From a virus (Duplodnaviria; Heunggongvirae; Uroviricota; Caudoviricetes), in the IMG/VR virus record IMGVR_UViG_2917413769_000006, positions 1 to 26,903 of that record: DNA of 26,903 nt, one strand, 5' to 3'. The position numbers were made by a program, and so were the translations under genes. Below are positions 6,100 to 20,095 of the stretch, piece after piece. The notes under the pieces are model-generated. The model had not been told where the DNA came from and searched no databases. It saw only the letters and a list, made by a program, of their open reading frames with translations. The first letter of the stretch is position 1, and each line of letters begins with the position of its first letter.

Positions 6100-6635
6100 G
6101 TGCACTGCTTGCCATAGCCGAGAAATACTGGAAGCCACTGGTGATCACGTTGCTGGTGGCTTTTTCGTTATGGCGTGTATTCAACGCGGGATATGAATCG
6201 GCTGATTCTGCCTGGAAGCAACAATGGCTACAGCGAGATCTGGCTGACTCAACCGCAACCTTACATAGAGAGGTTGCCGAGCGAACCGAAGAACGGCGGC
6301 GTCAGCAGGCGGCAGACGAGGAACGAAAACGTGCAGATGAGGAACTGGCAAAAGTACAGGCTGATGCTGACGCTGCTCAGCGGGCTGGTGATGGGTTGCA
6401 GCAACAACTCGCCACGCTACGCAGGCAACTCGCAGGAAGTGAAACCGGCCGCATTTCCGCAATTGCAGCAGCAGGCGCGGCAAAAGCCGAGACCACAAGA
6501 GTGCTTGCCGAGCTGCTTGGCGAATCTGACAAAAGAGCGGGCATCTATGCAAAAGAGGCTGATGAACGCTATGCAGCAGGATCAAGCTGCGAACGAACCT
6601 ACGACAAAGTGACAGGAACAAATAATGGAAATTAA
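6096..6635 (+). CDS. i-spanin (Rz-like)
   Basis: ATGA overlap with endolysin; N-terminal transmembrane helix (WKPLVITLLVAFSLW) followed by charged coiled-coil-like region; contains an embedded ORF in another frame. Confidence 0.75.
   Translation: MSALLAIAEKYWKPLVITLLVAFSLWRVFNAGYESADSAWKQQWLQRDLADSTATLHREVAERTEERRRQQAADEERKRADEELAKVQADADAAQRAGDGLQQQLATLRRQLAGSETGRISAIAAAGAAKAETTRVLAELLGESDKRAGIYAKEADERYAAGSSCERTYDKVTGTNNGN
6337..6612 (+). CDS. o-spanin (Rz1-like outer-membrane lipoprotein), embedded in the i-spanin gene
   Basis: Alternate-frame ORF wholly inside the Rz-like gene; MRNWQKYRLMLTLLSGLVMGC has signal peptide plus lipobox Cys; Pro/Gln-rich mature part with a further Cys (QECLPSC). 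Confidence 0.65.
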   Translation: MRNWQKYRLMLTLLSGLVMGCSNNSPRYAGNSQEVKPAAFPQLQQQARQKPRPQECLPSCLANLTKERASMQKRLMNAMQQDQAANEPTTK

Positions 6636-7023
6636 GTTGGTCAAATACTGGAAGGTTGAGTTATTCGAACAGCAGAAATCAGGGGTTTCTGTATTGATGG
6701 CTGAATCCAGGAAGCCATTTTTCACCGGATACTCAAAAGAGCGAATTAACCCCGAGAAAATCCACGGTAGCGAGTTTATTTCGCTAGCTCCGACTCCTGA
6801 TTCACTGGCACTTGAATCTGTTCGGTTGTATCGGGTTGATGAAATCAAATGCATCCCGGTTTACGAACAGGAAGTTGACTCTTTTGCAGAAGCCGCAGAG
6901 CCACTGATTAAATGGATGGCAGAAAGCGTTCACCCACACCACTCAGCGATCGTAACTTCGACTGGCGCGGAGCTATTGATGAGCGAAAAGACTCACAATA
7001 CCGAAAAATATCTCAAAGACTGA
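6625..7023 (+). CDS. hypothetical protein (moron between lysis cassette and terminase)
   Basis: 132-aa ORF with RBS (aggaacaaataATG); no recognisable motif; followed by about 210 bp of non-coding DNA. Confidence 0.5.
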   Translation: MEIKLVKYWKVELFEQQKSGVSVLMAESRKPFFTGYSKERINPEKIHGSEFISLAPTPDSLALESVRLYRVDEIKCIPVYEQEVDSFAEAAEPLIKWMAESVHPHHSAIVTSTGAELLMSEKTHNTEKYLKD

Positions 7024-7234
7024 CATTACAGAAGCTATTCACGTAGGGGCTTCGATAATGCAAGGCTAAACATTGTCTCCCACCGCGCACCCAGCGCATG
7101 GCAACAGGCGGCATTTATTTTGTTCTGATTTCCCGACAGGTTTGCATTCACGGCAGCATAAACGATCAGTTTCTGATCCATGCGCTATCGCTACTTGCCG
7201 GAGTCATAGTTTTCAGACCAGAGGATTATTCTTT

Positions 7235-8262
7235 ATGTCCAGAGCGAACTGGGAGGAACGATTATCCCTGTTCGCTGATGAATGGAAGCGAACGGAGATA
7301 TCACCAAAAGAGTGGTGTGAAAGAGAAGGGTACTCATGGGGAACGGCGAAAGCATACATCTCGATAAAGGCGGCAAAAGTGCTGCTTTCTTCAGATGGAG
7401 TTATCACCGAGAAGCCAGAAAAAAAAATTGCGAAAAAAAAAGTTCGGAAAAAATCGCGAATTCGGAGATAGAAAAAAGTGCTGAAGAGTTAGCGGAAAAA
7501 AATGGGCTGACGGCGAAGCAAAAAAAATTTATTGCCGAATATCAGAAAGATAATAACGCGACTCAGGCGGCGATTAGAGCCGGGTACAGCGAAAGGAACG
7601 CCGATAAAATCGGACCAGAGTTGCTGGGGAAAACTAGGGTAGCGAAAGAAATCGCGAATCTGCAGAAAGCCCACCTTTCCCGAACATTAATAAAAGCAGA
7701 CGACGTGCTCGAAAAAATGTGGCAGCTCGCCACCTTCGACGCTAACGAGATTTCTCAATATCGGCGTGGTGCCTGTCGTTACTGCTGGGGGTTTGGTCAT
7801 CATTATCAGTGGCGTGATGCAATCGAGTTTGAAGAAAAAAGCTCTGGTGCTCGAGCGAAGAAAGGCAAAGAGCCTAACGATGCTGGTGGATATGGTTACA
7901 ACCATAATGACGAACCTAATCCTGAATGTCCTCGCTGTAACGGTGACGGAGTAGGGCGTGCGCATTTCGCCGATACGACAAAACTTTCCTCTGTTGGCCG
8001 GCTTGCGTATTCCGGTACGAAGCTGGTTAAAGGTGGCATTGAGATTACTGCCATCAGCCGGGAAAAAATGTTTGAAGCGATTATGCGTAGATTAGGCCTT
8101 TCCGATACCGAACTGGCCCAACGGCTGCTTGAGCTTGAAATACGCAAACGTACTGCTGAGGCAGAACGTCTTGAGCATGAAACGGAGCTGAAGCGAAAAG
8201 GCAAAAGCGATGAGAAGCCGACCATCGTTATTAAACTGGTGAATTCCCCTGATGACGACTGA
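7235..8262 (+). CDS. terminase small subunit (P27/Terminase_2-like), reading frame split within A-rich tract 7419-7441
   Basis: N-terminal HTH-like segment MSRANWEERL...ISPKEWCEREGYSWGTAKAYIS from ATG 7235 stops at 7471; the Terminase_2-like core (LTAKQKKFIAEYQKDNNATQAAIRAGYSERNA...) continues in the adjacent frame to 8262. The two frames overlap across two A9 runs (7419-7427, 7433-7441). Confidence 0.65.
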
Positions 8263-9523
8263 ACACGTTATTAAGTTTTTGCCATTTCACGACGGGCAGA
8301 AAAAGATTTATCGATCTCCAGCAAAGAGAAAAGTAATCCGTGCTGGTCGCCGTTATGGCAAAACGACAATGCTTGAGCAGGCCGGGGGAAACTGGGCGGC
8401 ACGACAAATGCGAGTCGGTTGGTTTGCCCCGTCATATAAAATTCTTCTTCCGTCGTTCAAAGCGATTCGGGAACTGTTGAAGCCGATCACAACCAGTTCA
8501 AGTAAGACCGATTCGATTATTGAGACCATTGGCGGCGGTCAGGTCGAATTCTGGACTCTGGATAACCCCGACGCTGGGCGATCCCGTAAATATCACAAAG
8601 TCATCATTGATGAGGGAAGCCTGGTCAAAAAAGGCATGCGTGATATCTGGGAACAGGCAATCGAGCCGACACTGCTGGATTTCGACGGTGATGCTGTAAT
8701 GGCCGGTACGCCTAAGGGTGTGGATGATGAGAATTTTTTCTATCAGGCCTGCAATGATAAATCGATGGGGTGGGAGGAGCACCACGCGCCAACAGCTGCG
8801 AACCCAACGATTAACCCCGCAGCACTGGCGAGGATTATTGACGGTCGCCCGCCGATGGTTGTGCAGCAGGAATATAACGCAGAGTTTGTGGACTGGCGCG
8901 GACAGAACTTTTTCAAACTCGATTGGCTGCTGGAGAATGGCGAAGCTGTCGATTATCCGTTTGCCTGCGATACCGTTTATGGCGTTGTTGACTGTGCGCA
9001 GAAGGGGCAGTTACAGAACGACGGATCTGCGTGCATCTGGTTTGCGCTAAATTCGCTGCCGACGCCTCACCTGGTCATTCTCGATTGGGACATTATCCAG
9101 ATTGACGGTTATTTCCTGAAAGATGTGGTGCCGCAGTGGATAAACAAGGCCAAACAGCTTAGCGAAATCTGCCGGGCACGCATGGGCACCACCGGGCTGT
9201 TTATTGAGGATAAGGCCACCGGCATTACGCTGCTGCAACAAGGCGCTAATGAAGGCTGGAACGTTCACCCCATCGATAGCGAGTTAACGGCGCTGCCGAA
9301 AGAATCTCGCGCCATCAATATTTCTGGATATGTGGCGTCCGGGAAAGTTCGCATTTCTAAATACGCCTTTGACAAAATCGTTGAGTACAAGCAGTCGAAG
9401 AAAAATCATCTTCTGACACAGGTGCTCAAGTTCATCATCGGTGAAGAAGACCAGGACGACGATCTGTTTGATTGCTTTAACTACGGCGTCGCGCTGGGTC
9501 TGGGTAACGGAGAGGGGTTCTGA
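8252..9523 (+). CDS. terminase large subunit
   Basis: 423 aa; Walker A-like GRRYGKTT near N-terminus, acidic motif VIIDEG; overlaps terS stop. Confidence 0.85.
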   Translation: MTTEHVIKFLPFHDGQKKIYRSPAKRKVIRAGRRYGKTTMLEQAGGNWAARQMRVGWFAPSYKILLPSFKAIRELLKPITTSSSKTDSIIETIGGGQVEFWTLDNPDAGRSRKYHKVIIDEGSLVKKGMRDIWEQAIEPTLLDFDGDAVMAGTPKGVDDENFFYQACNDKSMGWEEHHAPTAANPTINPAALARIIDGRPPMVVQQEYNAEFVDWRGQNFFKLDWLLENGEAVDYPFACDTVYGVVDCAQKGQLQNDGSACIWFALNSLPTPHLVILDWDIIQIDGYFLKDVVPQWINKAKQLSEICRARMGTTGLFIEDKATGITLLQQGANEGWNVHPIDSELTALPKESRAINISGYVASGKVRISKYAFDKIVEYKQSKKNHLLTQVLKFIIGEEDQDDDLFDCFNYGVALGLGNGEGF

Positions 9524-10959
9524 TGCAGGACGACGATATTTGCATGGGTAGTAATGCTGGCGTCCTCAGTAAGATTCTGGAGGGCGACAGCATTGAACCC
9601 GGTGCGCAGGCGGGGTATGAGCTCTGCAAGCTGATTTACCTGTTTCACCCGCTGGGCGGAAAGATGGTCGACCGACCGATAAAACTGGCGATGTCGGAAC
9701 CACGAACCGTACATGTAACGCGCGGGCCTGAGAAGCGGTTGCGTGAGGCGTTCGAACGGGAATGGAAAGCGATTAAAGCCGATCGCATTATTGCGAATAC
9801 TGCACGCCAGTCCCGTATTTATGGTGTTGGCGCAGTCGTGATGCTCATTGAAGGCGAGCCCACGAACGAGGCCGCAGGGTTCGATACGCTTTACAGAAAA
9901 TCCATCACCTTTAACGTGCTGGATCCGCTGAACACTGCCGGTTCTGTAGTGCTCAATCAGGATCCTAACTCTGCTGATTTCCAGAAAGTGGGAAGCGTTA
10001 CCGCGGCAGGCAAGCCTTATCACCATAGCCGTTGCTGCGTGATGATGAACGAGGATCCGATCTATCTGGCCTACACGCCATCGTCTTTCGGGTTTGCCGG
10101 GCGCAGCGTTTACCAGCGTGCACTTTATCCACTGAAATCATTCATTCAGTCGATGCGCGCTGATGACATGGTGACGATTAAAGCCGGGCTGCTGGTGGCG
10201 TTCATCAAACAGGCCAGCTCCATCGTCAATAACATGATGCAGAAAATGTCCGGGATTAAACGCTGGATGTTGAAACGCGGTGGTAACGGTGACGTGTTGC
10301 AGGTAGGAGAGAATGACAAGATTGAATCTCTCGACATGCAGAACCTCGAAAAGCCGCTGGATACTGCCCGTAACCACATTCTGGCGAATATCGCGACGGC
10401 GGCAGATATGCCCGCGATTCTGCTCAACAGTGAGACGTTTACGCGCGGGTTTGGTGAAGGAACAGAGGATGCAAAAGCGGTCGCCCAGTATATCGACGAT
10501 GTACGTAAAGATTTGCAGCCGCTTTATGATTTTTTCGTGCGCATCGTTCAGTACCGGGCGTGGTCACCTGAATTTTTCGACGCTCTGAAAAACGATTTGC
10601 CCGAGTACAAGAGTCTCAGTTGGGAGGCGGCTTTCAGTTCCTGGGTGAACAATTTTGAATATGTCTGGCCTTCGTCTCTGAAAGAGCCGGAAAGTGAAAA
10701 AGTCAAAGTCGATGAAACGCGCTTTAAGGCGATCACTGAGATGTTGACTGTGCTGCTTCCGCAACTCACCAAAGACCCGGAAAACAGGGCGACGCTTATT
10801 AAGTGGGCCTGTGAGAATGCCAACATGAACGAAAACCTGTTTGCCGATCGGCTTGAGCTGGATTATGAGCTGCTGGAGAAATTCCCTCCGGATCCACCTT
10901 CAACAAGCAATGATAGGGAGGATGGTGATAATGGCCTCATTCGTGAAAGAGCTGCGTGA
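9523..10959 (+). CDS. portal protein
   Basis: 478-aa ORF immediately after terL (ATGA overlap); size and position; no motif independently confirmed. Confidence 0.7.
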   Translation: MQDDDICMGSNAGVLSKILEGDSIEPGAQAGYELCKLIYLFHPLGGKMVDRPIKLAMSEPRTVHVTRGPEKRLREAFEREWKAIKADRIIANTARQSRIYGVGAVVMLIEGEPTNEAAGFDTLYRKSITFNVLDPLNTAGSVVLNQDPNSADFQKVGSVTAAGKPYHHSRCCVMMNEDPIYLAYTPSSFGFAGRSVYQRALYPLKSFIQSMRADDMVTIKAGLLVAFIKQASSIVNNMMQKMSGIKRWMLKRGGNGDVLQVGENDKIESLDMQNLEKPLDTARNHILANIATAADMPAILLNSETFTRGFGEGTEDAKAVAQYIDDVRKDLQPLYDFFVRIVQYRAWSPEFFDALKNDLPEYKSLSWEAAFSSWVNNFEYVWPSSLKEPESEKVKVDETRFKAITEMLTVLLPQLTKDPENRATLIKWACENANMNENLFADRLELDYELLEKFPPDPPSTSNDREDGDNGLIRERAA

Positions 10960-11806: not shown

Positions 11807-13381
11807 GTGAAAACCTACGCTGCCGGGATCCTGTTCAAGTCTGGCGGGAAAATATTTCTGGTAAAGCGTGGGGATGATGGTTCATGGGCGGTACCGGGTG
11901 GGAAACTCGAAGAGGGCGAAACGCCGGAAGCCGCAGCAAGGCGTGAAGTGATGGAAGAATGCGGGTTTGATTATTCCAGCCCCCTGACGCCGCATACCCT
12001 GATTGATGGCTATGTTACCTATCTTGCTGATGATGTTGAGCAGTTCGACGCGGTTCTGAATGAGGAGAATCAAGCTTATGGCTGGTTTTCTCCTGCTGAA
12101 CTGCCCGATCCGCTACATCCCGGCATGGTGGCGATGCTTGATGCCGAACCACTAAATGAAATGGACGTTGCCGGGCTTATCGCTCACGGGCAACTCACAT
12201 CCCCGCAATTTTTCAGAAATATGTACCTGTGGGCGCTGCGTATCACCGGAACGGGTGTTACCTGGCGATCCAGATTCAGGCAATACGCCTACCGATCCCC
12301 TGAAAACTATCTGACGGATGAATTCCTCGCCCGGTGCTCTGGGCTGCCGGTTATCTGGTGGCACCCGGAGAAAAACACGCTCAGCAGCGAGGAATTCGCC
12401 TCAAGGACGATCGGGACCATCGCGTTTGCCTGGATAAAGGGTGATGAGGTGTGGGGAATGGCCCGCATCTATGACACCGACGCCGCTGCGAATCTTTCAA
12501 CGCGGCAACTGAGCACATCCCCCACGGTGGTGGGCGGCGATGACGTTCTGATCAACGTCGACGGTGAACCGCTGCTGCTGGAAGGAACTCCGGAATTGTT
12601 AGATCACCTTGCGATTTGTGAACAGGGCGTCTGGGACAAGCTGGGAGAACCGACGGGAGTTAAATCCGACACACTTGTAAACGAGGTCCAGAAAATGGAT
12701 GAAGAAAAATTATTAGCACTCATTAACCAGGCGCTGGACGCTCGCGAAGCCCGCGCAAAGGCTGACGCCGAGGAAAAAGCGAAAGCAGATGCAGAGGCCG
12801 CAGAAAAGGCTAAAGCCGATGAAGACGCCGCCCGCATTAAGGAAGAGGAAGAAAAAGCGAAGGCTGACGCCGAGGCAAAAGCGAAAGCTGATGCGGAGGC
12901 AGAAGAAAAGGCCAAAGCGGACGCCGAGCTGGAGAAAATCCGCGCAGACATGGAAGAAATGAAAAGCCGTGTGCCGCAGGAACTCAGCGACGAAGAGCGC
13001 AATGAGATCGCTGATACCCAGTGCAAAGCTGACAGCGTATTTGCCTCTTTCGGCGAACGCGCGCCGCAACCTATGGCGGGTGAACGTGCGCTGCCCTACC
13101 GCCGCCGCATCATGACCCGCCTGCAGAAATATTCTCCTGATTATAAAGAAGTGGATCTGCATGCCATCGCAGACAGCCAGCTCCTGAGCATCGCGGAGAA
13201 AAAAATCTATGCCGATGCGCAGGCATCAGCGGCATCCAGCCTGGAACCCGGCGCTGGGCTGCGTGAAGTCATTCGCACCGATGCCACCGGGCGCCGTATC
13301 AGCACCTTTATCGGCGATCCGTCAGCAACATGGGCGCCTTTCCAGGCTGTCAGCCGTAAAGTCGCTGGCATCAAACAGTAA
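11807..13381 (+). CDS. Nudix hydrolase domain fused to head scaffold/protease-like protein
   Basis: GTG start 5 nt after RBS ACGGAGGA. Residues about 1-110 form a Nudix fold with a complete Nudix box [24 protein letters not shown] (G-x5-E-x7-REUxEExGU). Remainder: globular middle domain, imperfect KADAEA-type coiled-coil repeats (about 12747-12930), basic C-terminus; occupies the protease/scaffold slot between the F-like gene and capsid genes. Confidence 0.75.
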
Positions 13382-19508: not shown

Positions 19509-20095
19509 TTGCTGTGAAAATTGACCGCAAACTGAATTTTGTCAGCACCATCACGCGCGATGATGGCTCTCTGGTTTATCTGCACGTCACGCCTTTCCCG
19601 TATGAGGTAGTAGAGGAAAACTGCGTTCTGCTGGGAAATCTGTTCAATAACTTTTTCACGATGGTCGGCACCGTCGGCGCACCGCGCGTGGCCGCCATGA
19701 TGCTGCGAAAAGTCCTCAAGTCACAGCAGGATAATGGGGCTATGCCGGATGGCACGCCGACGCTGATGGATGATATCGAGCGGCTGACCACCGTTATCTG
19801 GAAAGATGACGGTGTGTGGAAATCGGTTCCCCTGGCGGCGGCATTCAAGGGGGGAATTATCACCCCCGATGAATACCGGGAAGTTGAAGGCGAGGTGGTT
19901 TTTTTTATGGTGAGCTCTGCCATTCAAAAAGCGGATCTGCTCTCGGGAACGATGGGAAAATCGCTCGAAATGTACAGTGGGCAACTCGTCTCATTGAACG
20001 TTATGGCGTATCGCGATTCTTTACCGACGTCGAAAACGGATACCGATACCCCGATCCCGGAAGCCCAGCCGGAACTATCGCACATACCCTCCTGA
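19499..20095 (+). CDS. putative tail assembly chaperone
   Basis: GTG start at 19499 or 19514; located between tube and tape-measure genes. No overlapping alternate-frame ORF of 60 aa or more in the track. Confidence 0.4.
   Translation: MGLIAVKIDRKLNFVSTITRDDGSLVYLHVTPFPYEVVEENCVLLGNLFNNFFTMVGTVGAPRVAAMMLRKVLKSQQDNGAMPDGTPTLMDDIERLTTVIWKDDGVWKSVPLAAAFKGGIITPDEYREVEGEVVFFMVSSAIQKADLLSGTMGKSLEMYSGQLVSLNVMAYRDSLPTSKTDTDTPIPEAQPELSHIPS

Follow-up and report, generated by a model that had tools for sequence, protein, structure and literature searches.

The closest described relatives of the terminase small subunit (TerS) discussed here are the Terminase_2/PHROG 51 proteins of enterobacterial prophages and of Klebsiella phages such as ST405-OXA48phi1.3 (QBP08130.1). 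TerS structures have generally led to the view that the Terminase_2 core begins with an HTH-type DNA-binding region. Recoding is known from other genes: the -1 frameshifting on A_AAA_AAG in dnaX is one example, and transcriptional slippage in IS elements and in endosymbiont genes, on runs of A9 or longer, is another. Slippage is an intrinsic tendency of long A runs, and bacterial RNA polymerase tends to slip on A/T runs of at least nine bases. Homopolymer indels are also frequent in Ion Torrent sequences, and become worse as the runs lengthen. The resulting false frameshifts and pseudogenes in draft genomes have several features in common: a single-base length change is found only in long A runs, the rest of the sequence is identical to another assembly, the gene is broken in two, and a downstream ATG is annotated as the start.

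The terS locus analyzed here lies in a prophage of Escherichia sp. E1130, in a stretch of 26,903 nt (the window). Its domain order is the same as that of the Terminase_2/PHROG 51 relatives. The protein shares with the ST405-OXA48phi1.3-type TerS the N-terminal pattern W..F....SPKEWCE..G..Y..A..YI, the Lys/Gln-rich linker, the Terminase_2 core with a CxxC...CxxC insert, and the C-terminal tail. As in the Klebsiella phages, terS is located immediately upstream of the large subunit gene (terL) and overlaps it, which is the normal terS-terL arrangement. The E1130 protein differs from its family relatives in that the identity is only 54-67%; the N-terminal domain and the linker are the most divergent parts, with an extra stretch of about 15 aa. 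Moreover, the lysines of the E1130 linker are encoded in A8 runs, whereas the corresponding Lys-Lys codons of the relatives contain A5-7. Judged by its sequence, the E1130 TerS is an ordinary member of the Terminase_2/PHROG 51 family, and its sole peculiarity is a longer and more A-rich lysine linker.

In the deposited window the gene is split between two reading frames. Like the dnaX and A9+ slippage systems, this window has A_AAA_AAA and A9 runs at the junction of the two frames. It also shows each of the features of the Ion Torrent false frameshifts listed above, without any difference in kind from typical Ion Torrent indel errors; it is unusual only in that there are two errors, both +1, 14 nt apart. 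The evidence presented below argues strongly that the split is an assembly artefact, in which two A8 runs were each overcalled by one base in the Ion Torrent assembly.

The terS locus in the deposited assembly

The whole terS gene extends over positions 7235-8262 on the plus strand, and is frameshifted as written (1028 nt). The first ORF (7235-7471) encodes 78 aa; it starts with ATG and ends with a TAG stop codon at 7469-7471, just past two runs of nine A residues. The second ORF (7336-8262, same strand) also starts with ATG and encodes 308 aa. The offset between the two starts is 101 nt, or 2 modulo 3, which places the second ORF in the -1 frame relative to the first. The two ORFs overlap by 136 nt, out of frame with each other. 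As read directly from the window sequence, the A9 runs occupy positions 7419-7427 and 7433-7441, separated by the spacer TTGCG. In frame 0, an A_AAA_AAA heptamer is found in both the first run (7420-7426) and the second run (7435-7441).

These two runs are the only homopolymers of at least nine bases in the 26.9-kb window. The surrounding region is rich in A, with 48% in positions 7400-7530 versus 25% window-wide. A count of A/T runs of at least eight bases gave six hits in the window versus 2.1 expected from shuffles, and five of these hits are located no more than 110 nt from terS. The original prediction had described two A9 runs at the overlap of the frames in an A-rich stretch, and this description was confirmed directly. 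It had also proposed that the frames would be fused by a single additional A or by a -1 slip. The arithmetic is correct; in the intact allele, however, each run is shorter by one A (net -2) rather than one A being added.

The Terminase_2 core (PF03592) is located at 7507-8106 on the plus strand, corresponding to aa 58-257 of the 308-aa ORF. Its Pfam score is 100.2 bits against a cut-off of 26.1, and the fused protein scores 100.3 bits. The predicted Terminase_2-like core in the frame of the 7336 ORF thus has a match above the gathering score. The terL gene (8252-9523, plus strand, PHROG 2) lies directly downstream as an ORF overlapping the end of terS by 11 nt, and the portal gene follows at 9523-10959.

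Homologues and gene structure

The 7235 and 7336 ORFs are pieces of one small-terminase gene, as had been proposed. With BLASTP, the 78-aa frame-0 peptide could be aligned (E = 9e-11) with the start of the 334-aa TerS of Klebsiella phage ST405-OXA48phi1.3, which is a fused protein. The peptide further matches PHROG 51 (profile positions 1-45) and PHROG 370 (positions 1-47), both annotated as "terminase small subunit". When the two pieces are joined in one frame as in the second assembly described below (A8/A8; 1026 nt), the 341-aa protein (P0121, identical to WP_138211497.1) matches the PHROG 51 TerS across residues 1-319 in one stretch (E = 5e-50). A database look-up of the 78-aa product gave no record.

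The homologues were then checked for an organization as two separate overlapping genes, and none was found; all of them are single ORFs. A fused single ORF is present in 21 of 21 homologous loci, comprising 3 Klebsiella phages and 18 enterobacterial prophage loci. Among about 120 proteins listed of 1551 matches, the full-length homologues are also fused, and nearly all of them have 323-338 aa; over all the homologues the length is roughly 325-340 aa. Their layout consists of an N-terminal "MAKPDWGELQQRFLS..GVSPKEWCEAQGLNYATARRYIKK" domain, followed by a Lys/Gln-rich linker and the Terminase_2 core. The single continuous ORF of the relatives is absent from the deposited window. No homologue examined has a counterpart of the first 35 or so residues of the 308-aa ORF (MGNGESIHLDKGG...).

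Nucleotide searches identified only distant relatives. A megablast search of positions 7100-8300 against the GenBank phages and the complete E. coli genomes gave no match. A blastn search of the terS region returned only the terS genes of Klebsiella and Yersinia phages, with 66-73% identity, and the relatives found in a scan of genome contigs were no closer than 57-69% identity; terS is intact in each of them. A KKLR motif in the linker was considered as a proof of the frame between the two runs. This candidate was dropped, since MAFFT does not align it to the KKLR of the homologues in this low-complexity linker.

N-terminal domain and CxxC insert

The N-terminal segment had been described as HTH-like. 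Pfam gave no match to the frame-0 N-terminal peptide; the N-terminus of a Klebsiella-phage homologue matched HTH_29 with E = 0.063, below the threshold. An AlphaFold model of residues 1-61, based on 34 homologues, has three helices (residues 6-20, 24-31, and 35-53), with a mean pLDDT of 67. In a Foldseek search against the PDB, the top matches were all HTH DNA-binding domains (DosR, DesR, DeoR, and GerE); these matches are weak, all with E >= 0.65. An HTH-like N-terminal piece is plausible but not established. If the Terminase_2 core is itself HTH-type, the N-terminal domain would be an additional module rather than the sole DNA-binding element.

The core also contains an inserted CxxC pair (CRYCWGFG ... 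CPRCNGDG) at about 7774-7938, and its cysteines are invariant across the aligned family. The insert has a weak match to DnaJ_CXXCXGXG (E = 0.08). This CxxC...CxxC insert is likely to be a zinc ribbon within the small terminase.

Comparison with a second assembly and two read sets

The window is 100% identical to PDIL01000006.1 (GCA_004745435.1, Escherichia sp. E1130), which was the one contig returned by an exact look-up of the 308-aa product. According to the E1130 genome announcement (PMC6639607), the reads behind this assembly were Ion Torrent single-end reads, 35-400 nt long and with a coverage of 50x, and they were assembled with MIRA and SPAdes. An exact look-up of the TerL protein identified a second NCBI assembly containing the prophage, VATL01000016.1 (GCA_005781065.1), together with the Logan assemblies of two SRA runs, SRR8835199 and SRR6148301. 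The second assembly also carries the name Escherichia sp. E1130 (taxid 2041645), and its terS product is TLI70102.1 / WP_138211497.1, with 341 aa.

VATL01000016.1 was compared with positions 1488-26903 of the window (25.4 kb, in overlapping pieces). There were 0 mismatches and exactly 2 gaps. Both gaps correspond to one A less in each of the two runs, which gives A8/A8 in VATL01000016.1 and a continuous 1026-nt ORF for the 341-aa TerS. From the organism name, the taxid, and the identity over 25.4 kb, we infer that the PDIL01 and VATL01 assemblies represent the same strain. The two assemblies agree at the other long homopolymers in the compared region: the A8 at 7520-7527, the T8 at 19899-19906, and each of the eight 7-mers. 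The discordance is therefore confined to the two longest homopolymers of the window.

The SRA read sets were examined at the same positions. The Logan contig of SRR8835199, a different read set, is also A8/A8 and has the intact 341-aa ORF. The Logan contig SRR6148301_135 is identical to the window, and starts at position 7434 inside the second run, with eight A's before GTTCGG. Since this contig starts exactly at A8-GTTCGG, its reads should differ as to the base before this point (A or G), as deduced from the way a de Bruijn graph breaks. This suggests inconsistent run-length calls at the second tract in the SRR6148301 read set, which was assumed to be the Ion Torrent experiment SRX3260321. 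A look-up of the upstream genes retrieved just the two NCBI assemblies and a single SRR8835199 contig, with no upstream SRR6148301 contig among them. A literature search for VATL00000000 and SRR8835199 found nothing on their sequencing platform. Taken together, A8/A8 rather than A9/A9 is most likely the true sequence.

Origin of the split gene

Of the explanations offered in the original prediction, a homopolymer sequencing error is strongly favoured by the Ion Torrent origin of the deposited assembly and by the intact A8/A8 gene in the second assembly. The true gene would contain A8-TTGCG-A8 and encode a continuous 341-aa TerS, in which a three-helix domain at the N-terminus is joined by a Lys-rich linker to the Terminase_2 core. 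The Ion Torrent consensus would have overcalled each A8 of the linker by one base, both at 7419-7427 and at 7433-7441 on the plus strand, and the net +2 nt would break the frame. The NCBI annotation pipeline would then have taken the first ATG of the downstream frame, at 7336, giving the 308-aa WP_240782892.1. It is slightly unusual, and counts against an artefact, that both overcalls go in the same direction and lie 14 nt from each other; yet the two tracts share the same length and base.

This explanation also accounts for the two pieces as they are written. The true N-terminal three-helix domain would be encoded at about 7235-7417 in the 78-aa ORF, and the linker that follows would run out of frame past the first A run. 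The 308-aa protein from 7336 would be a by-product of the error, with real coding only from the second A run onward. Its first 35 or so residues (7336 to about 7441) would be fictitious, being an out-of-frame reading of the N-terminal domain and the linker. A8/A8 gives the same architecture as every homologue, and thus no recoding mechanism is needed. The terS split is best classed as not being a real feature, and the packaging module of the prophage is probably intact rather than decayed.

A caution for annotation may be drawn from this locus. A_AAA_AAA heptamers, A9 runs, and overlapping frames look like a textbook recoding signal, and here they coincide with the type of error that is characteristic of the sequencing platform. 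RefSeq has taken over this error and lists WP_240782892.1 as a 308-aa "terminase small subunit"; the correct WP_138211497.1 (341 aa) exists for the other assembly.

Alternative explanations

It is unlikely that the tract lengths truly changed, that is, that the PDIL01 DNA is A9/A9 through replication slippage and terS was inactivated in that clone, by prophage decay or by an on/off switch of packaging. Long A tracts are the expected place for such slippage, the two assemblies differ precisely at the two A tracts, and the break of the SRR6148301 contig at the tract would fit a mixed population too. However, a real change needs two independent +1 events in one strain, with 25.4 kb around them otherwise unchanged, and there is no obvious selection for two such changes. 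Homopolymer length is also the very feature that is typically misread by the platform used for the A9/A9 assembly. No other isolate or metagenome has this tract, so that a natural polymorphism is undocumented: exact-pattern scans for the tract, allowing variable run lengths, gave no match in the IMG/VR viral contigs or the JGI metagenome contigs. The decaying prophage with an inactivating mutation, which the original prediction had listed, is without support.

A related idea, which we consider quite improbable, is that the A8 (or variable A8/A9) tracts are truly hypermutable. Such tracts could toggle terS and packaging in E1130 populations, or yield a product with only the N-terminal domain via slippage. 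In that case, the two assemblies would have captured heterogeneity within the population, not instrument noise, and the locus would provide a rare example of phage packaging controlled by homopolymers. The present data give no support for this. The tract has been seen in one strain only, and the sole A8/A9 polymorphism is confounded with the choice of sequencing platform.

Programmed recoding, in which a genome that is truly A9/A9 expresses the full-length TerS by -1 frameshifting on A_AAA_AAA or by transcriptional slippage on A9, is very unlikely. The frame-0 heptamer in both runs is compatible with the former, and the tendency of the polymerase to slip on runs of nine or more with the latter. 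A run of at least nine A/T at the junction is present in the Ion Torrent assembly (A9/A9), and A8/A8 is found both in the second assembly and in the SRR8835199 read set. Conservation would be expected of a recoding site; unlike in the dnaX and A9+ slippage systems, the two-frame arrangement is not conserved, being absent from the 21 loci and from the listed database homologues. No downstream stimulatory structure was found in the 93 nt from the inter-run spacer onward: the RNA of 7428-7520 folds with -16.8 kcal/mol, no better than shuffles (-14.3 +/- 2.8; z = -0.88). The split is also gone in VATL01000016.1 and in the SRR8835199 read set, where the same prophage is in frame. The slippage-dependent expression that had been suggested therefore finds no support.

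Two genuine overlapping genes, one for a small N-terminal protein (start at 7235) and one for a Terminase_2 protein (start at 7336), can practically be dismissed: both ORFs have ATG starts and the 308-aa product is annotated in RefSeq, but the relatives are all fused, the frame-0 peptide has a homologue counterpart where the first 35 or so residues of the 308-aa ORF have none, and no member of this terS family offers a precedent for an out-of-frame overlap of 136 nt.

Other A runs of the linker and neighbouring genes

Further A runs follow the two tracts in the linker. Runs of A6, A6, A7, and A8 start at 7448, 7472, 7496, and 7520, with an exact 24-nt spacing, from the linker into the start of the Terminase_2 core. 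These regularly spaced runs were considered as a pac-type site. This candidate was set aside, as the homologues merely show shorter A5-7 runs at Lys-Lys codons, recurring at gene positions 127, 152, 166, and 191. The 24-nt-spaced A runs are probably just AAA lysine codons.

Several other genes of the window were annotated. A 132-aa ORF (6625-7023) is located between an Rz-like gene and terS; it matches PHROG 16206 over the full length (E = 4e-42), with no Pfam match. At the junction of the early and late regions of the prophage there is an IS3-family element, consisting of orfA (HTH_Tnp_1, 335-685) and orfB (HTH_21 and rve, 682-1569). This element has the usual two overlapping frames, and the gene call of the other assembly gives a fused 402-aa product. 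Adjoining the element, on the minus strand (1628-1987), is the remnant of a serine recombinase that lacks the first 80 or so profile positions of the catalytic domain. A gene of the head module (11807-13381), flanked by the portal region on one side and the major capsid gene on the other, encodes a 524-aa protein with an N-terminal NUDIX hydrolase domain. It was identified by the Pfam NUDIX match, by PHROG 6216 over the full length, and by NUDIX PHROGs over residues 1-120. A NUDIX fusion in a morphogenesis gene is unusual.
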